Origin: Escherichia phage EC6 | Length of the DNA stretch: 64,000 bases | Strand: one strand, 5' to 3' | Sequence record: JX560968 | Shown here: one piece after another, positions 45,858-64,000 of the stretch | Layout of the letters: each line of letters begins with the position of its first letter | How positions within the stretch are numbered: the stretch's first letter is position 1 | The notes under the pieces: generated by a model | Told to the model about the DNA's origin: nothing | The model's database searches: none | Seen by the model: the letters and a program-made list of their open reading frames with translations, nothing else | Position numbers and translations under genes: made by a program

Positions 45858-46342
45858 ATGAATTACATGGAGATTAGACCATTTGACACAGCTAATGGTG
45901 AAGGGGTTCGTGTAAGCCTCTTCGTAGCTGGCTGCAAACATCACTGTGAAGGCTGCTTTAACAGGGAGTCTTGGAAATTTAATGCTGGTAAAGAGTTTAC
46001 TTATGCAAACCTCTATGGCATCATCAAGTTAATGGATGATAATGCTATCAGTGGGCTGTCAATACTTGGTGGGGAGCCTCTGGATGATAGAAACATTCAA
46101 GACGTTACCAATATATGTAAACGTATTAAAACTGTTTACCCAGAAAAATCTATATGGCTTTGGACAGGTTTTCAGTTACACGAAAAATCCACCTCGATGT
46201 GATGAAATATGTTGACGTGGTGATTGATGGTAAGTATGATTCTTCTAAACCAACAGTTAAACCTTATCGTGGTTCTGATAACCAAAACCTCTGGAGAAAA
46301 GAGTATGGATGGCAAGGTGATTGTCAATGGCGAGCAGAATGA
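45858..46342 (+). CDS. nrdG: anaerobic ribonucleotide reductase activating protein (radical SAM), frame interrupted at A5 run 46184-46188
   Basis: N-terminal half has CKHHCEGC (CxxxCxxC) and IWLWTGFQLHE; -1 frame continues KIHLDVMKYVDVVIDGKYD...RGSDNQNLW, matching NrdG C-terminus. Confidence 0.65.
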
Positions 46343-47185: not shown

Positions 47186-47197
47186 ACAGATACTATA

Positions 47198-47230
47198 AGG
47201 GGACTGTAAAGGTTCCCTTTTTATTTTTAT
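47198..47230 (+). terminator. rho-independent terminator
   Basis: AAGGGGAC...GTTCCCTT hairpin then TTTTTATTTTTAT. Confidence 0.5.
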
Positions 47231-47239
47231 GGAGATACT

Positions 47240-47755
47240 ATGTACCTGTCAAACCTGAAACGTTCGGCTGCAATGTCAGTTCTAAGACTCAGCTTTGAGG
47301 AACGTCAAGAGTTCATTGACTCCCACCAATATGACCCTTCCAACTCCAATCACATGATTCTCTGGAATCGTGAGAGTACTCGTGAAAGAGCATTATTCCG
47401 ATATTACCCATACTACACCATAGACAACCTGTATGAATGTTTTGTTGTGAAGAACACCATTACAGTACTCAATAAACTTTGCAGATACACAGGTAGTCAA
47501 TCCTTCACATTAGGCCACCACAAACCTGTTACAAAGGGTGGTGAGCATCACTGTGCAAACTGGTTTATCCAGACTAAACTTGATAATCAGAAGCAAGGAG
47601 ATAGTCTTTTAAGCACCTCTAAGATGACCTATGAAGAGCAAGAGAAATATATCAAAAATAATATGCCAGATGTGCTTGACAACAACTATACAGATTTGGC
47701 AATATCTCTCCTGTTGAAGTTCGAGACAGTTTATAGGGCAACTTATAATGGCTAA
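47240..47755 (+). CDS. HNH-motif nuclease-like protein (putative)
   Basis: LGHHKPVTKGGEHHCANWFIQTKLDNQKQGD resembles an HNH core. Confidence 0.35.
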   Translation: MYLSNLKRSAAMSVLRLSFEERQEFIDSHQYDPSNSNHMILWNRESTRERALFRYYPYYTIDNLYECFVVKNTITVLNKLCRYTGSQSFTLGHHKPVTKGGEHHCANWFIQTKLDNQKQGDSLLSTSKMTYEEQEKYIKNNMPDVLDNNYTDLAISLLLKFETVYRATYNG

Positions 47756-48026
47756 AGAAAAGTGGGAGATTTTACCATTAGTCAGTGAAGGAGGTAATGG
47801 TTGTGAAATGTACATGATACGTGGTCATGTTCCAGAGCCAATTGCACTTGAGATGGTAAACAACTTTACAGATGGTTCTTACAAAGACTTAGGCGAACCA
47901 ACTGTCAAGCAACAATGGGTTAAACCTGTACCAGACAGCACAGGTAACTGTAGTGTACTTTATCACGTTGTAGACCCTGCAAAATGCAAATCTGCAATGG
48001 CAGTAACAAACGTAACTTTTGATTGA
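47748..48026 (+). CDS. hypothetical protein
   Basis: 92-aa ORF. Confidence 0.3.
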   Translation: MAKEKWEILPLVSEGGNGCEMYMIRGHVPEPIALEMVNNFTDGSYKDLGEPTVKQQWVKPVPDSTGNCSVLYHVVDPAKCKSAMAVTNVTFD

Positions 48027-48037
48027 GAGAGAAAACT

Positions 48038-48919
48038 ATGAAAACATCTATCCGTGTTACAGTTCATTCACCAACTAAAGGGACTCATGAAGAAGAGTTT
48101 AACATCGTCCAATTCCCTTCTGGTGAGATTGGTGGACACTTTTCGCCAGAGTTTGTTGATTTTACTGCTTATGCAGCATCATCCATCAACAATGTGATTA
48201 TGATTGTAAAAGGTTATGACAAGGACACATTGTTTGCTGTGGCACTTGCTAAAGAAGCAATTGATGATTTAATTCCTCATGATTATGCTTTAAAGACTGT
48301 CATCTTTTACTACTTACCAAATGCACGATATGACCGTCACATGTTTAAAGGTGACGCAGCAGCTTTAAAGGTTTTTGCTAAACAGATTAATGCAATGGGA
48401 TTTGGCGCAGTCTGTGCAGTTGACCCTCACAGCTATGTACCAGATAACCTGTTTAACTGCTTCCAGAGTATTCCTCAAAAGGAGATTGCAGTTCACTATG
48501 CAAATGACCCACTGGTTGATTACTTAGTAGCCCCAGATGCAGGTGCTGCTAAGAAGGTTGCAGAGACCGCTAAAGAGGTGGATAAACCATATATCACAAT
48601 GTCTAAGGTGCGTAACCTTAAGACTGGTGAAATTACTGGTATGCGAATCCTTGATGATGTTGATTTGACAGATAAAACCGTCATGATTCTGGATGATATC
48701 TGTGATGGTGGTCGAACCTTCATAGAAGCAGCTAAGCATCTCCGTGAAGCAGGTGCAAAACGTGTGGAACTCTATGTAACACATGGTATCTTCTCTAAAG
48801 ATGTTGAAAACCTTCTTGACAATGGCATTGACCACATCTACACTACAAACTCTTTAGGGGAAGCTAAAGACCGTGGCTTAACACATTATAGCCAAGTTAC
48901 TGTAGCAAACCTTGATTAA
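48038..48919 (+). CDS. ribose-phosphate pyrophosphokinase-like protein (Prs-like; candidate ADPR-pyrophosphate synthetase)
   Basis: PRPP-synthetase-type nucleotide-binding loop VMILDDICDGGRT; about 293 aa; directly upstream of NAMPT-like gene. Confidence 0.6.
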   Translation: MKTSIRVTVHSPTKGTHEEEFNIVQFPSGEIGGHFSPEFVDFTAYAASSINNVIMIVKGYDKDTLFAVALAKEAIDDLIPHDYALKTVIFYYLPNARYDRHMFKGDAAALKVFAKQINAMGFGAVCAVDPHSYVPDNLFNCFQSIPQKEIAVHYANDPLVDYLVAPDAGAAKKVAETAKEVDKPYITMSKVRNLKTGEITGMRILDDVDLTDKTVMILDDICDGGRTFIEAAKHLREAGAKRVELYVTHGIFSKDVENLLDNGIDHIYTTNSLGEAKDRGLTHYSQVTVANLD

Positions 48920-48928
48920 AACTTTATA

Positions 48929-48950
48929 GGGGGCTTCAAAGCCCCATTTT
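48929..48950 (+). terminator. hairpin with short U-tract (weak terminator/attenuator) between Prs-like and NAMPT-like genes
   Basis: GGGGC-TTCAAA-GCCCC then ATTTTG. Confidence 0.4.
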
Positions 48951-48965
48951 GAGAGAGATTAAAAG

Positions 48966-50747
48966 ATGACTAAATCACTTTATGCAGTACCAGCAGGTCT
49001 TAATGCAGATGCTTACAAGGCATCACATATATATCAGTATCCAGATGTCACACAGTACCTTATGCTGAACCTGACACCACGTAGTGATAAATGGTTTAAC
49101 AGCCCTTTAGCAATTGATGGTGTAGTAGCTTTTGGTATTCAACGTTTTATTAAAGATTACTTGATAGACCACTGGAATGCCACCTTCTTTGGACGTGACA
49201 AAAAAGAAGTAATTGACGAAATCTTAGAAGTCATGAACGGTGTTCTGGGTAAAGATGCTATTGGTCGAGAACATTGGGAAGCACTTCACGACTTAGGTTA
49301 TCTACCAGTTGAAGTATACGCTGTAGAAGAAGGTACAGTTGTCCCTATGCGTGTACCAATGATTGTCTTCCAGAACACTGTTTCAGGTTTCCATTGGGTA
49401 GCAGGGTATCTAGAAGATGCTTTCTCTGCTGAGATTTGGAAGGCTTGTACCATTGCAACTATTGCATTGCACTACAAACGTATCTGTAAGAAGTGGTCTG
49501 ACCTTACTTGTGATAACGACTTACATTTGCCTTATCAGTGCCATGACTTTGCTATGCGTGGTATGTCCGGCTTTACTGATGACGCATTTAACGCTGTAGG
49601 CCACTTAACCAGCTTTAAAGGTACTGACAGTTTCCCTACTGTGTATACGGCTAAACGAATCTATGGACAGTCCTACCCAATCTCTGATATTGGCAGCTCT
49701 GTACCAGCCACTGAACACTCTGTAATGTGTGCAAACATTGCTTGGGAAGGTGGTAATGAGTTGATTGAAGAAGAAAGACGCTTTAAAGGTGAGTTACAAA
49801 CCTTCCGTCGTTTCTTAACAGAAACTTACCCAACTGGTATTGCAAGTGTTGTTTCAGACACTTATAATTTCTGGAGAACTGTATCAGAAATCTTACCAGC
49901 GCTTCGTAAAGAGATTATGGAACGTGATGGCAAACTGGTCATCCGTCCTGACTCTGGTGACCCTGTACATATTGTCACAGGTTATAAAGCAATCCACTTA
50001 GAGTGTGCTAAAAAGGCTTATTATGAACATCTTAGCAAGCTGGAAGCTAGTGATACAATGCTGAATGCTGTTCTGAACATGAAGCTTGAAAACATCAGCT
50101 ATGGTATTGCTGGATGGCTACTGTCAGAAGGCTACGAAATGGTTGTTGACCGAGAAGACTTTGAAGTTGCTGATACAGTGATGTTGAAAAATGCTTATAT
50201 GGTTGGCTCTGCAAACGTTGTAACACGTCCTGTAGCAGAGATTGATGGAGCTATTAAGACCCTGTACAACATCTTCGGAGGGACTATCAACTCTAAAGGT
50301 TTTAAGGTACTGGATGAGCACATTGGACTTATCTATGGTGACTCTATCACGTTGGAACGTGCAAACGAAATCCTGAAGCGTCTGTATGAAATGGGTTTTG
50401 CAAGCTCTAACGTAGTTTTTGGTGTAGGTTCTTACACTTATCAGTATATGACTCGTGACACCTTTGCATTTGCTGTTAAAGCAACTCTTGCAAGCATCGG
50501 TGGTAAAGAGATTATGCTTGCAAAAGACCCTAAAACAGATAGTGGTGTTAAGAAATCTGCCTTTGGTGGTGTAGCACCTATGTGGGATGGTGATAAGCTG
50601 AAAGCTGTAGATGGCTACGGATTCCAGAGTTTTGCAGATGTACTTGACCACCCAGCTTGTGCTTTACGTTTAGTCTTTAGTGACTCTGAGCAGTTTGGTT
50701 ACACAACTCTTGGTGATATTCGAAATAATATTGACAAGCAGCTTTAA
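48966..50747 (+). CDS. nicotinamide phosphoribosyltransferase-family protein (NAMPT/NadV-like; candidate nicotinamide ADPR transferase)
   Basis: NAMPT signatures IRPDSGDPV, GLIYGDS, NVVFGVGSYTYQ; 593 aa. Confidence 0.65.
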   Translation: MTKSLYAVPAGLNADAYKASHIYQYPDVTQYLMLNLTPRSDKWFNSPLAIDGVVAFGIQRFIKDYLIDHWNATFFGRDKKEVIDEILEVMNGVLGKDAIGREHWEALHDLGYLPVEVYAVEEGTVVPMRVPMIVFQNTVSGFHWVAGYLEDAFSAEIWKACTIATIALHYKRICKKWSDLTCDNDLHLPYQCHDFAMRGMSGFTDDAFNAVGHLTSFKGTDSFPTVYTAKRIYGQSYPISDIGSSVPATEHSVMCANIAWEGGNELIEEERRFKGELQTFRRFLTETYPTGIASVVSDTYNFWRTVSEILPALRKEIMERDGKLVIRPDSGDPVHIVTGYKAIHLECAKKAYYEHLSKLEASDTMLNAVLNMKLENISYGIAGWLLSEGYEMVVDREDFEVADTVMLKNAYMVGSANVVTRPVAEIDGAIKTLYNIFGGTINSKGFKVLDEHIGLIYGDSITLERANEILKRLYEMGFASSNVVFGVGSYTYQYMTRDTFAFAVKATLASIGGKEIMLAKDPKTDSGVKKSAFGGVAPMWDGDKLKAVDGYGFQSFADVLDHPACALRLVFSDSEQFGYTTLGDIRNNIDKQL

Positions 50748-50761
50748 AAGTATATGATAAG

Positions 50762-50784
50762 AGGCTCCTACGGGAGCCTTTTTA
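50762..50784 (+). terminator. rho-independent terminator
   Basis: AGGCTCC-TAC-GGGAGCCT then TTTTAATTT. Confidence 0.6.
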
Positions 50785-51322: not shown

Positions 51323-53690
51323 ATGCGCATGGTAAACGACCACGCAGAAGTGATTAAGAGTTCAACTTCTTTAGAGACGTCTCAGGCACAGATTACAATG
51401 ACACCTGAAATGTTCAGCCTTTTGAGTTCTGGTGTATATACCTTTAAAGAAAGGGCAGTCATTCGTGAACTGTCATGTAACGCAGTAGATGCTCAGAAAG
51501 AAGCTGGAAAAGAGAACATCCCTTTCCATGTGCATTTACCTACTCGTTTTGAGCCTTACTTTGAAGTTCGTGATTTTGGAACTGGATTGACTCATGATAA
51601 AGTTATGAGTTTGTATCTAAACTACGGGGCTTCTACGAAGAATGACTCTAATGACTACATTGGTGCAATGGGTATCGGCTCAAAATCTCCATTTGCAATT
51701 GCTCAGTCATTCACAGTATCTAGCTATGTTGATGGTGTTGTTAATAAGTACTCTGTTTATCTTGAGAATGGTATCCCTCAAGTAACTAAGCTGACTACTA
51801 ACCCAATAAAAGAACCTAATGGTTTAGCTGTACGTGTAGCAGTTGCTGACCATCGTATCTCAAAGTTCTTTGAAGAGGCTGGTCACGTATACTCATACTT
51901 TGCTGTAAAACCAGAAAGTAATATCGAGTATGACGATATATTAGCAGATATGAACGTCATTGCCCGTGAAGAAGGTGTTTATGATGCCATGATTCATAAG
52001 CAAAGCTGGCGTTCTAGTGGTAACAGGACAGAGTTTAATGTGGTGATGGGTAATATTGCCTATCCAGTGAACATGGAAGCATTACTTGGTGATGATTTCT
52101 TCAAAGTATTGCCAGAATTTTTCCGTAGGAGCGTAGACCTTGTAAACATCTACATGCCTATTGGTTCAGTTGCTATTGCAGCTTCTCGTGAAGCATTGCA
52201 GATGAATGACACGACAAAAAACTGTTATCATTGAGGCTACTAAAAAGATAACTGAAGCAATTACAAAGGATGTTATCAAGAAAGTTAACAGTCAACCTAC
52301 ACTTATGGATGCTGCACAGGCTTATGCTGAGTTACGTTTGAACTCACGAGAGATGTTTAATGCTGTGTGTCCAAAGCTAGAGTGGGGTGGTGTTAAGCTT
52401 GATTCTCTGGAAGAAGAATTACTAAACATTCGTCGTGGAATTATCTACGCAGAAGACGGCTCAGTTATCTATGAACGTGATGGTAAAGGTAATATTAAGG
52501 TTGATAGGAACGGAAACAATATCCCTAAAGTAGATTATCTTTATAATCCAGTTGCTTATGTTAAGTTCAACTCTTTAGAAAGTAAGATTCGTGCAACAGC
52601 ACTTTCCTACACTCAAGAGGCAAGTATGTTCAATATCTTTGGCGCAATGCGTAAAAGTCAAATTGAACAGTTTTTGTTTGTTATAAACGACCGTCGCAAT
52701 AAAAATGGTACTGAGAAGACTGTAGGACGCAATCAGATTCTGCGTGGTGCATGTCGAGACTATGCCAGTGAGTCTAGTCTGTTTCACAGATACAACGGTA
52801 TCGTCTTTGTATTCTCGACTGAAAAAGAGTTAGACAACCTAATCAATCTGCACAAACTTGATAAAAGCTTGTTAAAGATTGTGAAGATGTCTGATAAGGA
52901 ACATCATTATCAGCGTAAAGAAGCTGTAAGAGGTGTTGTAAAACTTTGGAAAGCTGTTCCAGCAGAAGGTGTAGCTTCATACAAAGAGGTGTCAGAGGAC
53001 TTAGATACGATTGAAGAACCTCAGCTTTACATTAAGGCAATTGGTGACACAGTTGATGGTGAATGTTTTTGCTCATCTCCAGAAGATGTAGCTAAGTCAG
53101 TTGCTAATGTTACAGGTAAGACAGTCTATGTTTTCCGAAAAGCAAATTGGAAAAAGATACCAGAAGATTGGATTGAAGTAGATGAGAAACTCTTGAACGA
53201 CAGCTTAACTGATGTTCACTGGATTAACCATAACAGATATATGACGCGTATCTATATGAATGGTGTCCTTGACCTTACAAGCAGTTGGATTATTGCCAGA
53301 AACTTTACATTCAATAACAGGAAGATTTCTCGTGGTTATTGCTATTCACGGGATACAAACAAAACTATCTTCCTAGAAGGAAATGAAGAGGCTGTAGAGG
53401 CAATGTTCGGTAAAATCCAATACGTTGCTGCACCGTTTGCATACACTTATACTATTAGTAGATTGCAAACTTTGAAAGAATGTCTTGACAACGATACAAA
53501 GCTGTACAAGAAAATCAAGAAAGCTGGTGACCGTATGGTCATTAAGGTGACAAACTACCTTTCAAAAAGAAAACAAGAAAACTTCTTGCTTTCTCATTTA
53601 GATTGGAATAAAGTGTCACCCATCGAAGTGAGTAAGTTCTTGGGCTTTGATGTGAAGTGTGTTCCAGAAGGGACTACAATTTACGATTAA
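51323..53690 (+). CDS. rIIA: rIIA-like protein with GHKL ATPase N-terminal domain; two overlapping ORFs (51323..52234, 52206..53690) joined by a frame change at A6 run 52216-52221
   Basis: Bergerat-fold motifs ELSCNAVDA, RDFGTGL, GAMGIGSKS; combined about 797 aa; followed by rIIB-like gene as in T4. Confidence 0.5.
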
Positions 53691-58548: not shown

Positions 58549-59334
58549 ATGGGTATTGTAAAAATAATCAATGGTGATATCTTTTCCGCCTTTGATAAAG
58601 GTAAGTTTGACATCATTGGTCACGGCTGCAACTGTATGAACTTAATGGGTGCAGGTATCGCTGACAAGATTTCTAAACTTTACCCAAAAGCATATGAGAC
58701 CGATACAGAAGTTTATTTGTATGCAGGTGGCATAGGCCACAAACCCTGTGAAAATTTACTAGGTAATTTCTCTGTAGCACGTTTAGAACAAGGCCGTATA
58801 GCTAACCTTTACACTCAGCTTAAGACTGGTAAAGATGCCCGATATAGTGCTTTAGAGTCATCTTTGAAACAGCTTAACAGATACTGTGAAGTCAATCAGT
58901 TGAAGAAAGTTGGGTTACCTATGATTGGTGCAGGTATCGGTGGGCTAGACCCTCAAGCAGTCACCGTTATCATTAATCAGGTGATGAAGAGTGTAGATGT
59001 GTATCTGTATGTCTACGAAGGAGAGATGTACCACAAGTTACGCTCAGGTTGGAAGAACTACTGTGAACCAGAATACTTTGCAGGTGTAGTAGTATTCACG
59101 GATGATGCAGTTACCCTCTTCAGACGAAGAAAAGGTAAGATACATCAAAGTAACCCTCCGGTTGAAAAGATGTCTCTAAGTAACGCTCTAGTTACCCACC
59201 TGTCGAAGAGCAATCACAGGATTGCAGTAACATTTGGCAGTGATGCAGATACATATATCTATGCAAGAACTGATGAGGATGTTGAGGAAATTTTCTCTTC
59301 ACAGGAAGTTACCTTCTTAGACGCAAAGAACTAA
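58549..59334 (+). CDS. macro-domain-like protein (ADP-ribose binding/processing, putative)
   Basis: N-terminus INGDIF...FDIIGHGCNCMNLMGAGIADKI aligns by eye with macro motif GDIT...DAIVNAANxxLLGGGGVDGAI. Confidence 0.45.
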   Translation: MGIVKIINGDIFSAFDKGKFDIIGHGCNCMNLMGAGIADKISKLYPKAYETDTEVYLYAGGIGHKPCENLLGNFSVARLEQGRIANLYTQLKTGKDARYSALESSLKQLNRYCEVNQLKKVGLPMIGAGIGGLDPQAVTVIINQVMKSVDVYLYVYEGEMYHKLRSGWKNYCEPEYFAGVVVFTDDAVTLFRRRKGKIHQSNPPVEKMSLSNALVTHLSKSNHRIAVTFGSDADTYIYARTDEDVEEIFSSQEVTFLDAKN

Positions 59335-59592: not shown

Positions 59593-59763
59593 TGTAGGTG
59601 GGGATGTCGCCATTTCTCACAAGGCTACCACATCTGGAAATAAAAGTCAACAGAAAAATTTGTAGCGGATTGAAAAATAATTCTTGATTGTAGTTCTGTT
59701 TTGTGGTAGTCGCGTGCGCCCGTTTCATTACAGTTTTTTGCAAAAATATTTTTAAAATTTTTC

Positions 59764-59859
59764 TTGACTCCTCGAACGGGTTTTTATAGTATTTGCATCA
59801 GACGGGGAGGGAGTGACCTTCCCCACTAAATAACTAACCTTAAACTAGGAGATTCAAAA
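59764..59859 (+). promoter_or_regulatory. promoter + 5' stem-loop + SD cassette (type I variant)
   Basis: TTGACT-N17-TAGTAT, then GGGGAGGGAGTGACCTTCCCC hairpin, then AACTAGGAGATTCAAAAATG. Confidence 0.55.
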
Positions 59860-60240
59860 ATGGCTTATCGTGCACCTAAATTCATCAATAAAGACAACTT
59901 CCGCAACGCACTGGAAAAATCACTTGATGAGAACTTTACAGGTCAGATTATTATTGTTCACGCATATAATTTTAAGTATGATATTAACGGGAATAAAATC
60001 AATCATTACACGGCAACAATGGTAGATGGTACACTATCAAGTGAAAAAGCCGTACTGAATGCACTTGCAGGACGTGGCAAAAACCTGATAAAATGCAATA
60101 AGAGACGTTATCAAGGCGGCGCATATGGTTATGATGATGCTGTTTACCATCTTGAAAATATGGGCTATCAGGTGGAAAAAGCCGGAATATCTCAAATAAT
60201 TGGCAGTGATGGATATGTGACAATTTTCAAAATTAAATAA
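59860..60240 (+). CDS. early hypothetical protein
   Basis: 126 aa; own promoter/stem-loop cassette and AGGAGA RBS. Confidence 0.45.
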   Translation: MAYRAPKFINKDNFRNALEKSLDENFTGQIIIVHAYNFKYDINGNKINHYTATMVDGTLSSEKAVLNALAGRGKNLIKCNKRRYQGGAYGYDDAVYHLENMGYQVEKAGISQIIGSDGYVTIFKIK

Positions 60241-60247
60241 AAAGTAC

Positions 60248-60329
60248 TTTACAAGGGGCTTATAGTTCGATAAAGTAAGCCCCAGATAAAGAGCTTTACC
60301 ACTAAATCCTTAAACTAGGAGATTCAAAA
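60248..60329 (+). promoter_or_regulatory. promoter-hairpin-SD cassette (type II)
   Basis: TTTACA-N17-TAAAGT with GGGGCTTA...TAAGCCCC hairpin spanning spacer and -10; then CCTTAAACTAGGAGATTCAAAAATG. Confidence 0.5.
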
Positions 60330-60842
60330 ATGAAAACTGTAGACGCTACCTTTGAAGTTGTAAAAGAAAAATTTTCCATCATTTACGAAGCGGTTAACTG
60401 CTACGAAGCAAGTCATAGCCTTGATAATTGGGAATTTACAGATAATCATCAAGGTGGTGTTACTGTTAAAAATCCTAACTATCAGCGTAATGAGTTTAAA
60501 TATGCAATCCCTTTACATTACAGCCTGAAACAGCTTTCGAGTGACTATGCAAAACAAGGACGGGCAAATCCATCAAAAGAGGCTTATATCAGCTTACAGG
60601 AAGAACTAGAAAGGGATTTGGAGGCTTCAGAGTATAATATCTCTGCAAAAGTTGTGGATGTAAACGGGAAAACGGTTTTAGACAGCTTTTACATTGGTTA
60701 CGCTTTCGATTGGTGCTACAGTGACGGCGATGATTTAGATGAAAGACTAAAAGAGGAAGTGAACAACGCAGACGCAGAATCTGAAGTATTAGAACGCTTG
60801 GAAGCCTTAAAAGATTCAGTGATGAATATCTTTAAAAATTAA
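60330..60842 (+). CDS. early acidic hypothetical protein
   Basis: 170 aa, acidic C-terminal half (DGDDLDERLKEEVNNADAESE). Confidence 0.45.
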   Translation: MKTVDATFEVVKEKFSIIYEAVNCYEASHSLDNWEFTDNHQGGVTVKNPNYQRNEFKYAIPLHYSLKQLSSDYAKQGRANPSKEAYISLQEELERDLEASEYNISAKVVDVNGKTVLDSFYIGYAFDWCYSDGDDLDERLKEEVNNADAESEVLERLEALKDSVMNIFKN

Positions 60843-60858
60843 ATTAAGAGGGAACACC

Positions 60859-61191
60859 ATGTTAATGATGGGTATCACTGCAATCATCGCCATTATAGCA
60901 CTTTATAAGGCTTACAGCGCCTATAATCTGGCAAGTAAGGCAATCACGCAACAGGTTAACAATAATCTCGTGATGAGCTTTCTCGAGCGTTTAAGCGATG
61001 AGCAATTGAAACGGTTAGAAATGAGCTTCAGATTTCAATCAAAAACTTATCAAATCAGCGACATTTTCAAAGAGGATTTTCAGCTTGTCGATGATTATAA
61101 CGCACTGATAAATGCTTTAAATATCAGTGACTTAAAAGACTACTATGCTGTAATTGTTCAAGAAATGAGCAAACGAAAAAATTCCTCTTGA
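60859..61191 (+). CDS. early membrane-anchored hypothetical protein
   Basis: 110 aa, N-terminal TM MLMMGITAIIAIIALY. Confidence 0.4.
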   Translation: MLMMGITAIIAIIALYKAYSAYNLASKAITQQVNNNLVMSFLERLSDEQLKRLEMSFRFQSKTYQISDIFKEDFQLVDDYNALINALNISDLKDYYAVIVQEMSKRKNSS

Positions 61192-61281
61192 TTTTGGTTT
61201 TTAAAGCAAGTAAATTACTAATCAACGGGGAGGGGATGACCTTCCCCACTAAGTAAAACCCTTAAACTAGGAGATTCTAAA
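61188..61281 (+). promoter_or_regulatory. promoter + 5' stem-loop + SD cassette (type I)
   Basis: TTGATT-N17-TAAATT, ACTAATCAACGGGGAGGGGATGACCTTCCCCACTAAGTAAAACCCTTAAACTAGGAGATTCTAAAATG. Confidence 0.55.
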
Positions 61282-61554
61282 ATGTATACTACTAACAACG
61301 GTCGCACCTTAAACGTAACCCTTCGCCACTATGTGAACGGTGTAATGCACTTCGAAGATTTACAAGCTGAACAACATATTCTGAATTGGCAACTTGCAGG
61401 ATTCCAAAAAACTGCTACCGGATACGGGAAAAAGATTCCAACTAGTTGGAAAGTATACTACGAAGGACGTTTGCGCAGAATTTATCAGGATGTTTACAGC
61501 AATAGCGCAACAAGTTACATCATGGTAAAAGGTAAAAAATTGCACTTAGTGTAA
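61282..61554 (+). CDS. early hypothetical protein
   Basis: 90 aa. Confidence 0.4.
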   Translation: MYTTNNGRTLNVTLRHYVNGVMHFEDLQAEQHILNWQLAGFQKTATGYGKKIPTSWKVYYEGRLRRIYQDVYSNSATSYIMVKGKKLHLV

Positions 61555-61559
61555 AGTAC

Positions 61560-61641
61560 TTTACAAGGGGCTTATAGTTCGATAAAGTAAGCCCCAGATA
61601 AAGAGCTTTACCGCATTAACCTTAAACTAGGAGATTCAAAA
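61560..61641 (+). promoter_or_regulatory. promoter-hairpin-SD cassette (type II)
   Basis: Near-identical copy of 60248..60329. Confidence 0.5.
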
Positions 61642-62046
61642 ATGGCTATCAATAAACGCGAATTATCAATTTTAAAAGCACGTTTGACCGTTAACCGGAT
61701 TAATGTTATTACGTCATCAGCACCAGACGAGACACTGCAAAACATTATTGGGAAGATTCAAAGTGTTATCTTAGACGTTGAAAGCGTAAAAAACTCACTG
61801 ACTGACGTTGCAGCAGGTATCACCTTAAACGGTGCACAATATGAAATGGCTGACATGTTAGGCAAATCTAAGGTAATGAATAAAGAGCTTGATTTGAAAA
61901 TGTTCAGATTCGCCGTAAAAGTATGGTTATCCGTCGATTATGACGCAAATTTTGCAATCGCTGACTTTTTCGCAACATGGTTACAACGTAATTTGACAAA
62001 TCACGATTTTCGTGATATCTGCGATGCAATTTATGCAGAACTTTAA
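61642..62046 (+). CDS. early hypothetical protein
   Basis: 134 aa. Confidence 0.4.
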   Translation: MAINKRELSILKARLTVNRINVITSSAPDETLQNIIGKIQSVILDVESVKNSLTDVAAGITLNGAQYEMADMLGKSKVMNKELDLKMFRFAVKVWLSVDYDANFAIADFFATWLQRNLTNHDFRDICDAIYAEL

Positions 62047-62061
62047 AAAAAAAAACTTTTG

Positions 62062-62156
62062 TTGACACTGGTTTTTAAATAGATTAAATTGTCAATCAAC
62101 GGGGAGGGAATGACCTCCCCCACTAAGTAAAACCCTTAAACTAGGAGATTCAAAAA
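62062..62156 (+). promoter_or_regulatory. promoter + 5' stem-loop + SD cassette (type I)
   Basis: TTGACA-N17-TAAATT; hairpin GGGGAGGGAATGACCTCCCCC (compensatory T-to-C change gives a perfect stem). Confidence 0.55.
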
Positions 62157-62357
62157 ATGGCTATTATTAACGGTTTAAATATTGAGACTACTCACATCAA
62201 AGACATTAAAGTTGGCGATATAGTCCTTTTTCACGGCGTAGAAAAAACCGTCACCGCAAAGGATATCAAAGAGGATTCATTCATGGGCCGGTCTCTCTTC
62301 GGTGATTCGTATTGCTTAGGTTACCGTGCAGTTTTAAAAGTTGTCAAAAATAACTAA
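62157..62357 (+). CDS. early hypothetical protein
   Basis: 66 aa. Confidence 0.35.
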   Translation: MAIINGLNIETTHIKDIKVGDIVLFHGVEKTVTAKDIKEDSFMGRSLFGDSYCLGYRAVLKVVKNN

Positions 62358-62365
62358 TAAAGTAC

Positions 62366-62447
62366 TTTACAAGGGGCTTATAGTTCGATAAAGTAAGCCC
62401 CAGATAAAGAGCTTTACCACTAAATCCTTAAACTAGGAGATTCAAAA
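62366..62447 (+). promoter_or_regulatory. promoter-hairpin-SD cassette (type II)
   Basis: Third near-identical copy (TTTACAAGGGGCTTATAGTTCGATAAAGTAAGCCCC...). Confidence 0.5.
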
Positions 62448-62990
62448 ATGAAATGCTTTCACGGTACTACTCAAGAAAACTTCACCAACCTGATTAATAA
62501 CGGCGATAAGCCATCAGGTGCATGGAATTGTTCGGATATGGACGGCAATTTTTACGTGTATCCAGAAAATAAAATCTATGGCGACGATGCGGAAGAGATA
62601 GCATCCGAAGGTATCCAGCAAGCTCTGGGCAATGCCACTATCACCGCAGCTTTCCAGATGAAAACTCAAAACATTGTTATCTTGGAACTTGATATTCCAG
62701 AAGACGAGTTAAATGATGATTATTCTTGCGATAATATGTCTGGCGTGGCAAGTTTTACGGAATATTTCGATTTAAACTGGATTAAAAAGGTTTACACCAC
62801 TGAATTTAATGCCATGTTTTCACCATTTTGTCTGCCTTCACTGGATAACCCGAATTTAAACTATATTGATGAGTCTCTGGAACTCCTCGCTAAAAGCGTT
62901 CAACAGTCCGACAGTATTCAGGTTTTTTGTGACATCATGGACACACTGACGGAAAACATCATAGAAAGAGATTTGAAGGGCTTTTTCTGA
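62448..62990 (+). CDS. early acidic hypothetical protein
   Basis: 180 aa, Asp/Glu-rich. Confidence 0.4.
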   Translation: MKCFHGTTQENFTNLINNGDKPSGAWNCSDMDGNFYVYPENKIYGDDAEEIASEGIQQALGNATITAAFQMKTQNIVILELDIPEDELNDDYSCDNMSGVASFTEYFDLNWIKKVYTTEFNAMFSPFCLPSLDNPNLNYIDESLELLAKSVQQSDSIQVFCDIMDTLTENIIERDLKGFF

Positions 62991-63022
62991 AAACCTATAC
63001 AATCACCTTATAAACACTATTC

Positions 63023-63043
63023 AGCCCCTTGCAGGGGCTTTTA
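63023..63043 (+). terminator. rho-independent terminator
   Basis: AGCCCCT-TGC-AGGGGCT then TTTT. Confidence 0.45.
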
Positions 63044-63056
63044 AAGGGCTTTAATC

Positions 63057-63290
63057 ATGCTTACAACCGTTTACCTTATCCTTTCCATCTGTAATGGACA
63101 TTCATGTGATTTTAAAGGTCTCGAGGAGTTTACAGGGAGTAAAGAAAATGCTATTCAGGTTTGCCAGATAGCAAGACAAGACTACCCCGCCAGTGATGAT
63201 ATTCAATGTTACTTTAAGACAGAAGACAGCGACGGCGTTTATTTTGACAGCGTTGATGGTCAATATGAAATTATCATTGATAAAGACTAG
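63057..63290 (+). CDS. early hypothetical protein with hydrophobic N-terminus
   Basis: 77 aa; MLTTVYLILSICNG. Confidence 0.35.
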   Translation: MLTTVYLILSICNGHSCDFKGLEEFTGSKENAIQVCQIARQDYPASDDIQCYFKTEDSDGVYFDSVDGQYEIIIDKD

Positions 63291-63380
63291 ACAAGCCGGA
63301 TAAAAGTCTGTAAATTACTAATCAACGGGGAGGGGATGAACTTCCCCACTAAGTAAAACCCTTAAACTAGGAGATTCAAA
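63288..63380 (+). promoter_or_regulatory. promoter + 5' stem-loop + SD cassette (type I)
   Basis: TAGACA-N17-TAAATT overlapping upstream stop; GGGGAGGGGATGAACTTCCCC hairpin. Confidence 0.5.
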
Positions 63381-63722
63381 ATGGCTTATGTAACTGTAAT
63401 TACTGATAAAGCTGATTCATCTTGGCCAACTCAAGTAAGCGATAAGATGACACCTATGCAGTGCCTAAAATACTTTGAGCAATGGAATAAAGGAGAAGGT
63501 GTCAGCCCCTTTCAAGTGATGCAGGTTATCCATGTAAGCGATAAAGGGATTAAAACAGTTTTAAACAGTGAACACTATACAACACGATTTGAAACGAGAT
63601 GTAAAACGATGAAACTGTTACGCGAATCCGGTTATTCTCATATTGCCGCGCTAATCTGGGATGACTTGCTAAAAAATCAGCGTATCAGCTACGTAAAACC
63701 TGAAAAAATATTCATCAGTTAA
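63381..63722 (+). CDS. early hypothetical protein
   Basis: 113 aa. Confidence 0.4.
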   Translation: MAYVTVITDKADSSWPTQVSDKMTPMQCLKYFEQWNKGEGVSPFQVMQVIHVSDKGIKTVLNSEHYTTRFETRCKTMKLLRESGYSHIAALIWDDLLKNQRISYVKPEKIFIS

Positions 63723-63754
63723 TCAATAACTTACAAAAAACTTCTAAAAAAGTG

Positions 63755-63783
63755 TTGACAATACCCCTTGACATTGGTAACTT
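63755..63783 (+). promoter_or_regulatory. sigma70-like promoter TTGACA-N17-TAACTT
   Basis: TTGACA 63755-63760; second overlapping TTGACA at 63768-63773. Confidence 0.35.
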
Positions 63784-63852
63784 TGTTCGAGGGGGTTTAT
63801 CTTAAAGGGATTCACTTAAAAGATTTCTTTAAAGATAAACTTAAAAAATTGC

Positions 63853-63946
63853 TTGCAATCAGATATCAAAACAAGTAAATTACTAATCAACGGGGAGGGA
63901 ATGACCTTCCCCACTAAGTAAAACCCTTAAACTAGGAGATTCTAAA
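63853..63946 (+). promoter_or_regulatory. promoter + 5' stem-loop + SD cassette (type I)
   Basis: TTGCAA-N17-TAAATT; GGGGAGGGAATGACCTTCCCC hairpin; AGGAGATTCTAAAATG. Confidence 0.5.
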
Positions 63947-64000
63947 ATGAACAAATTTCAAGCTATCAACTATATTCGTTCCGTCAATGTCATGTCTAAA
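63947..64000 (+). CDS. early hypothetical protein (3' end outside window)
   Basis: ATG after type I cassette; reads MNKFQAINYIRSVNVMSK to window end. Confidence 0.35.
   Translation, partial: MNKFQAINYIRSVNVMSK

Follow-up and report, generated by a model that had tools for sequence, protein, structure and literature searches.

The 64,000-nt stretch of Escherichia phage EC6 DNA analysed here (sequence record JX560968; hereafter the window) carries two adjacent genes, adps and namat, which with a probability of about 93% form a functional NARP1 (NAD+ reconstitution pathway 1) operon of a Felix O1-like phage. In the window this assignment is based on the orthology of the two genes to characterized ones, on the conservation of their catalytic and substrate-selectivity residues and on the anatomy of the operon; the chemistry and the anti-defence phenotype are ascribed to it by analogy with published work on the orthologues. 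According to the proposed mechanism, a host NADase (SIR2-HerA/Nezha, DSR, type I Thoeris, SEFIR and similar) would split NAD+ into ADP-ribose (ADPR) and nicotinamide. With ATP as the pyrophosphate donor, Adps would then pyrophosphorylate ADPR at the 1'' position to ADPR pyrophosphate (ADPR-PP), and Namat would join ADPR-PP and nicotinamide directly into NAD+, without a nicotinamide mononucleotide (NMN) intermediate or an NMN adenylyltransferase (Nmnat).

Megablast placed the window in the genus Felixounavirus. Over the NARP1 region it shared 96% identity with phages Barry and NRG857CP1 and 95.5% with wV8; altogether, 256 records matched this region, nearly all of them Felix O1-like phages of Escherichia, Salmonella, Shigella and Citrobacter. 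The window is collinear, at 92–95% nucleotide identity, with Bas63 (JohannRWettstein, MZ501086), the BASEL phage and Felixounavirus in which NARP1 was defined genetically (Osterman et al., bioRxiv 10.1101/2024.02.11.579819). Adps (293 aa) aligned with Bas63 gp79 over 293/293 residues without gaps and with 77% identity, and Namat (593 aa), also aligned over its full length without gaps, was 97% identical to gp80. In the discovery paper NARP1 was defined as a Prs-family and a Nampt-family gene within 10 genes of each other, and its Tables S1 and S2 list wV8, Barry, Felix O1 and Bas63, with Adps marked as Namat-associated and Namat as "Adps-associated" (bioRxiv 10.1101/2024.02.11.579819). In the window the two genes are next to each other, well inside this limit of 10 genes. 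The wV8 and Barry Adps proteins share their N-terminal start sequence with the window Adps, and that of wV8 is 99.7% identical to it. Being orthologous to the operon in which NARP1 was found, and with its allele listed in the discovery tables, the locus is already known. A literature search found no NARP1 study devoted to Felixounaviruses.

On SIR2-HerA hosts, Bas63 deleted for its "operon 79-80" plated about 20-fold less well, and only the wild type restored NAD+; host pncC and nadR were dispensable for protection, and ADPR-PP (m/z 720.010) was seen in infected cells only with the operon present; with the SPbetaL1 enzymes, Adps converted ADPR and ATP into ADPR-PP and Namat converted ADPR-PP and nicotinamide into NAD+ (bioRxiv 10.1101/2024.02.11.579819). 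NARP1 is a significant recent discovery, showing that phages remake NAD+ out of what immune NADases leave behind, via a previously unknown metabolite, ADPR-PP. By analogy with the Bas63 phenotype, our assignment suggests resistance to NAD+ depletion of the SIR2, DSR and Thoeris type in Felix O1-like phages used for therapy or typing. Its practical value lies in correct annotation, as public records still name the two proteins Prs and NAMPT.

The first-pass annotation of this DNA had described two open reading frames (ORFs) with a Prs loop and NAMPT signatures and had favored NARP1 over a phosphoribosyl pyrophosphate (PRPP) synthetase combined with NadV-type salvage. Both ORFs lie on the + strand and every motif quoted for them was located (Table 1). 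The choice of NARP1 was supported by the orthology to Bas63 genes 79-80 (identity, equal lengths and synteny), by the presence of the wV8 allele in the discovery tables and by the clamp signature of Namat considered below.

The adps product matched the Pfam families Pribosyltran (8e-12) and Pribosyl_synth (4e-10). It scored 120 bits against the validated Adps of Vibrio phage Gary vs 63 bits against E. coli Prs, in keeping with the phage Adps proteins as a group, which scored 112–191 bits among themselves and 63–76 bits against E. coli Prs. A placement by profile hidden Markov models (HMMs) against bona fide Prs, proposed together with the initial prediction, gave a concordant result. In NCBIfam, the window Adps passed only the broad subfamily model TIGR01251 (125.8 bits vs a cut-off of 113) and stayed below the cut-off of every Prs equivalog (best score 105.9 bits vs 296), while E. 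coli Prs reached 422.7 bits on TIGR01251 and 532.6 on NF002320, likewise a subfamily model. The loop reads DD[IL][CS]DGG in phage Adps where Prs reads DDMIDTGG, and the phage proteins lack a tail that E. coli Prs carries at its C-terminus (~20 aa in the alignment). Judged from identity, bit scores and cut-offs rather than from a full tree, the Prs-like protein of the window appears to belong to the phage Adps clade and not to cellular Prs.

In both L-INS-i and MAFFT alignments K190 of the window Adps stood opposite K192 of Gary Adps and K194 of E. coli Prs. The published equivalents of this catalytic lysine are K162 in SPbetaL1 Adps, K192 in Gary and K197 in B. subtilis Prs (bioRxiv 10.1101/2024.02.11.579819; bioRxiv 10.64898/2026.01.28.702374). 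A K192A mutant of Gary Adps was built, and inactivating any one of Gary's three genes eliminated anti-defence (bioRxiv 10.64898/2026.01.28.702374). The NARYDR, DPH and PDxG motifs are also conserved in the window Adps; therefore the pyrophosphoryl-transfer machinery would be intact. A literature search found no solved Adps structure, and PMC12774641 calls this structure unresolved.

The namat product matched Pfam NAPRTase (1e-34), with NAMPT_N just below threshold (24.9 bits vs a cut-off of 25). The Pfam scores of the two proteins and of the macro-domain protein (Table 1) greatly exceed what chance would give. Among PDB chains it scored 430 bits against the top chain, 9w5x (491 aa), vs 141–175 bits against human and other NAMPT-family chains; from its residue numbering, 9w5x was identified as the Namat of Bacillus phage SPbetaL1. 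All core residues of Namat are kept in the window protein (D15, Y17, F195, R198, D221, H251, R327 and D329), and F189, D215, R306 and the catalytic His of the Nampt-like SPbetaL1 core correspond to F195, D221, R327 and H251. Namat is told from Nampt by an adenine "selectivity clamp", which consists of the SCH motif GS-X-Φ1-X-Φ2-X-Φ3-TRD (with aromatic X) and the SCL loop; the latter provides the adenine-stacking residue, which is either Arg at position 3 or, following Lys/Tyr, the fourth residue (PMC12774641). The SCL of the window, TPRSDK42W43, is identical in sequence to that of Bas63, in which the fourth residue was described as the stacker (PMC12774641). As far as its sequence goes, the window Namat carries the published ADPR-PP selectivity-clamp signature in both parts, SCH and SCL.

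Two insertions distinguish the window Namat from the crystallized SPbetaL1 protein, which lacks both. They are kept in Erwinia phage Coenus (Namat 46% identical overall to that of the window), are shorter in Vibrio phage Gary, and are not discussed in the structural paper PMC12774641.

Table 1. Positions of the NARP1 genes, their diagnostic motifs and nearby features in the window; assignments of function are predictions.
Feature	Position	Strand	Description
Terminator-like hairpin upstream of the unit	47197-47219		Terminator scan
Small gene	47240-47755	+	171 aa; phrog_3500 (PHROG match); weakly HNH-like
Small gene	47748-48026	+	92 aa; phrog_4726 (PHROG match)
adps	48038-48919	+	ADPR-pyrophosphate synthetase, Prs-family pyrophosphokinase, 293 aa
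Adps motif NARYDR	aa 95-100		
Adps motif DPH	aa 129-131		
Adps catalytic-loop Lys	K190; nt 48605-48607		
Adps ribose-phosphate loop	aa 215-227; nt 48680-48718		VMILDDICDGGRT
Intergenic GC hairpin	48930-48945	+	GGGGGCTTCAAAGCCCC, then AUUUUG; fold -12.7 kcal/mol, z = -2.2
namat	48966-50747	+	Nicotinamide ADPR-transferase, NAMPT family, 593 aa
Namat SCL loop	aa 37-49		TPRSDKWFNSPLA
Namat catalytic His	H251		
Namat further insertion	aa 258-277; nt ~49737-49796		~15 aa
Namat motif IRPDSGDPV	aa 326-334		IRPDSGD with R327 and D329
Namat insertion	aa 351-426; nt 50016-50243		76 aa, lineage-specific
Namat motif GLIYGDS	aa 454-460		
Namat motif NVVFGVGSY	aa 482-490		
Namat SCH motif	aa 488-498; nt 50427-50459		GSYTYQYMTRD
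Intrinsic terminator	50759-50782	+	AAGAGGCTCC-TACG-GGAGCCTTTT and T-run; terminator scan; closes the transcription unit
Macro-domain gene	58549-59334	+	261 aa; Pfam Macro 1.2e-7

The conventional alternative to the NARP1 assignment is a salvage route, in which a true PRPP synthetase and a NadV-type NAMPT make NMN, to be turned into NAD+ by host NadR/PncC as a general boost. It shares with NARP1 the folds and the pyrophosphoryl- and phosphoribosyl-transfer chemistry, and the names speak for it: all annotated relatives label the pair "ribose-phosphate pyrophosphokinase" and "nicotinamide/nicotinate phosphoribosyltransferase", and Pfam, PHROG and NCBIfam name both proteins Prs/NAMPT. Moreover, with PRPP as substrate Namat enzymes form NMN in vitro about half as fast as human NAMPT (PMC12774641). 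Nevertheless, we regard salvage as very improbable. The counter-defence of the orthologous Bas63 operon required neither host pncC nor nadR and was accompanied by accumulation of ADPR-PP (bioRxiv 10.1101/2024.02.11.579819). From assays of SPbetaL1 Adps on ADPR or ribose-5-phosphate, and of Namat on ADPR-PP or PRPP, the authors concluded that the enzymes do not actually carry out the predicted PRPP/NMN reactions (bioRxiv 10.1101/2024.02.11.579819; PMC12774641). Unlike E. coli Prs, the window Adps (29% identical to it) has the DGG(R/A) instead of the DTGG loop, besides its low score, the missing tail and the failure on all Prs equivalog cut-offs; unlike NAMPT, the window Namat has the adenine clamp.

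Furthermore, no Nmnat is annotated in positions 1–86000 of the collinear Bas63 record (87100 nt), a result that refers to annotation and not to an exhaustive HMM scan. It bears equally on NARP2, the Nampt and bifunctional Nmnat pair of Vibrio phage KVP40, which likewise sets a NAMPT-family enzyme against NAD+ depletion; NARP2 needs PRPP and Nmnat, whereas in the window the partner of the NAMPT-like protein is Adps, and this NAMPT-like protein has the clamp for ADPR-PP. Still less probable is that the NARP1 copy is present but inactive or decaying, since the single-base indels at A-runs that split rIIA and nrdG relative to Bas63 point to sequencing error or decay somewhere in the genome, but both NARP1 ORFs are intact, of full length, with all catalytic residues and under purifying selection (omega 0.05–0.16).

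Several points weigh against a functional NARP1 operon in the window. The biochemistry comes from the SPbetaL1, Gary, DyoEdafos and Paenibacillus foliorum enzymes, none of them from a Felixounavirus (bioRxiv 10.1101/2024.02.11.579819; PMC12774641; bioRxiv 10.64898/2026.01.28.702374), and both enzymology and genetics would have to be carried over from phages other than that of the window. Namat enzymes keep some PRPP-dependent NMN synthesis in vitro (PMC12774641), so that a minor salvage role is conceivable. Position Φ3 of the window SCH is Met, in place of the usual Asn or Val; the same residue is present in Bas63. Finally, residues 1–180 of Adps are only about 63% identical to the Bas63 allele; with its N-terminal half so divergent, the function of the window allele rests on the conserved motifs and on purifying selection (omega 0.16).

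The divergence of the Adps N-terminal half has a counterpart in the DNA. The first ~460 nt of adps (48038-48500) were 65–75% identical to Bas63, between flanks of 93–98% identity and with sharp borders. Over the comparison with Bas63, synonymous divergence (dS) was about 1.5, i.e., saturated, and omega was 0.16; positive or diversifying selection on the 5' half of adps was ruled out by these values. The Adps proteins of Felixounavirus database records fell into two allele classes, 153 at ≥90% identity and 94 at 60–80% (about 77%). The pattern indicates that the divergent 5' part is an ancient allele, presumably swapped in by recombination.

With regard to the anatomy of the operon, the start of the region at 48023 in the first-pass annotation had to be corrected: this is only the TTG of the maximal ORF, and adps starts with the ATG at 48038. 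The latter is preceded by the stop codon of the upstream gene (48024-48026) and by a Shine-Dalgarno-like GAGAGAGA stretch, and it agrees with the Bas63 annotation. The genes adps and namat are adjacent on the same strand with a gap of 46 nt, in which the ribosome-binding site (RBS) of namat, again GAGAGAGA, lies 3' of the intergenic hairpin. This hairpin possibly acts as a partial terminator, thereby setting the ratio of Adps to Namat, or else as an element of RNA stability. The terminator behind namat folded with -18.1 kcal/mol (z = -3.3), and 0/200 shuffles were equally stable. Because the two small upstream genes sit between the terminator-like hairpin at 47197-47219 and adps, they are probably co-transcribed with it, and the transcription unit likely holds four genes: the two small genes, adps and namat. 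Neither of the small genes could be tied to NARP1. The 92-aa gene was ruled out as a conserved partner, as it is not conserved in Erwinia phage Coenus. The 171-aa HNH-like protein does occur there at the same position with 53% identity; its conservation was dismissed as a sign of a NARP1 role, since subfamily-wide collinearity alone explains the conserved position.

Compared with the named systems, the window operon is closest to NARP1 of Bas63, with which it shares genus, gene order, protein lengths, clamp loop, SCH motif and flanks (nrdG upstream and rIIA/rIIB downstream). It differs from it in the divergent adps 5' allele (~460 nt) and in the lack of an extra 345-nt gene, bas63_0081, which follows directly after Bas63 namat; the corresponding place in the window is at ~50798, after the namat terminator. 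NARP1 of SPbetaL1 (Namat structures PDB 9w5w/9w5x by residue numbering, PMC12774641) has the same two-gene layout, catalytic residues and GS-X-Φ-X-Φ-X-Φ-TRD motif. The window Namat differs from that of SPbetaL1 by Lys-Trp in the SCL, with fourth-residue stacking, in place of Arg40, by the substitutions S190 to Ala, A362 to Ser and F392 to Tyr, and by the 76-aa and ~15-aa insertions. The Adps-Adpp-Namat operon of Vibrio phage Gary, called NARP1-AP (bioRxiv 10.64898/2026.01.28.702374), resembles the window in Adps (38% identity, K192 corresponding to K190), in Namat (H243 corresponding to H251) and in a homologous macro-domain protein (27% identity, H24 corresponding to H25). However, the Gary macro gene lies between adps and namat, whereas that of the window is 7.8 kb away and encodes an additional C-terminal domain of ~100 aa.

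The macro-domain gene 8 kb downstream had been mentioned in the first-pass annotation with a hint at a link to NARP1. The gene is indeed present; the link is unproven, as about 17 genes separate it from namat, among them rIIA/B, PNK and the spanin genes, and the family occurs in many phages without NARP1. It belongs to a separate transcription unit and is not part of the NARP1 operon. Its product, 97% identical to Bas63 gp95, consists of a macrodomain of the TARG1/DarG/Poa1p class (aa 1–157) and a C-terminal beta-rich domain, full-length homologues of which were found only in Ounavirinae-type phages. Adpp is a macro-domain ADPR-1''-phosphate phosphatase, encoded inside the operon in 15% of NARP1 phages, and it lets NARP1 beat aRES, a RES-domain NAD+ phosphorylase (bioRxiv 10.64898/2026.01.28.702374). 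No macro-domain Adpp gene was found within two genes of the operon in the window, the arrangement by which NARP1-AP is recognized.

It is tempting to ask whether the macro protein could act as Adpp in trans, converting the ADPR-1''-phosphate made by aRES into ADPR for Adps and Namat. Several observations are consistent with such a three-enzyme NARP1-AP. The macro protein and the biochemically validated Gary Adpp both belong to PHROG 335, and BLASTP aligned them over the whole macrodomain (1e-13). Identity to the Adpps of NARP1 operons was 24–37% across the full macrodomain. His25 of the macro protein was invariant in the alignment and corresponds to H24 of Adpp, a mutation target; H23 of Poa1p, also targeted by mutagenesis, is presumably equivalent. 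Among Felixounavirus-type records, 256 had a NARP1-region match and 256 a full-length macro match, the overlap of the two sets not having been compared record by record. The published survey restricted its count to macro genes no more than 2 genes from NARP1, and its Table S1 has no Escherichia, Salmonella or Felix entries (bioRxiv 10.64898/2026.01.28.702374).

On the other hand, apart from the distance and the separate transcription unit, the macro family was found in 2804 phage records vs 1258 with Adps, T4-like phages included. To our knowledge, the T4-like phages with this family lack NARP1. The macro protein is closer to Tk.4 of phage RB3, the orthologue of T4 AdfM (34%, 84 bits), than to Gary Adpp (27%, 53 bits), and Adpp and Tk.4 are 39% identical to each other. 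We know of no DarTG2 phenotype for Felixounaviruses. Genetic evidence identified T4 Tk.4 itself as AdfM, which counteracts DarTG2 (bioRxiv 10.1101/2025.11.20.689424); it shares the DarG/TARG1-class fold with the window macrodomain and differs from the window protein by the absence of the added C-terminal domain. The accessible parts of the text and supplements of the Adpp preprint contained no Bas63 aRES data (bioRxiv 10.64898/2026.01.28.702374).

Altogether, the macro protein shows Adpp-family homology including the catalytic His, with proteins of the T4 AdfM type at least as similar. It may be regarded as a candidate accessory or independent anti-defence enzyme, for which we would put a little under half of the weight on an AdfM-like role, a quarter or slightly more on an Adpp-like one and the remainder on both or on something else. 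We consider it rather unlikely, but worth stating, that Felixounaviruses run a dispersed three-enzyme NARP1, in which the unlinked macro protein, acting as Adpp, would enable Adps and Namat to overcome aRES as well; in addition, the protein might serve as an AdfM-like eraser of DNA ADP-ribosylation by DarT2, with the C-terminal beta-domain adding a new partner-binding function. If real, a dispersed NARP1-AP would have been missed by the published surveys because only two genes around the operon were examined. A macro gene directly after namat was ruled out for Erwinia Ounavirinae, since the 153-aa gene following namat in Coenus is unrelated; in vEam_W_25 the macro gene again lies 3' of the spanin genes.

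Just upstream of the macro gene, the segment 57513-58343 is rearranged or replaced in comparison with Bas63, with about 280 nt without a match and different small ORFs. It is a variable slot beside a candidate anti-defence gene.

Further differences from Bas63 were noticed in the genes surrounding the operon. The rIIA gene is split into 51323-52234 and 52206-53690 by a single-base indel beside an A-run (~52222), and nrdG is split into 45858-46202 and 46154-46342 in the same manner (~46183); each is a single ORF in Bas63. Either homopolymer sequencing errors or real frameshifts may account for the splits. The homing-endonuclease gene bas63_0068, which interrupts nrdD in Bas63, is absent from the window (~43936). 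Towards the end of the window, at 59755-63947, repeated leader cassettes of ~110 nt form two families with at least 8 copies in all, each in front of a small gene. The cassette is composed of a promoter-like TTGA...TAAATT sequence, a GC-rich hairpin and a common CCTTAAACTAGGAGATTCAAAAATG RBS with the start codon, and such leaders probably coordinate the expression of the block of small genes.

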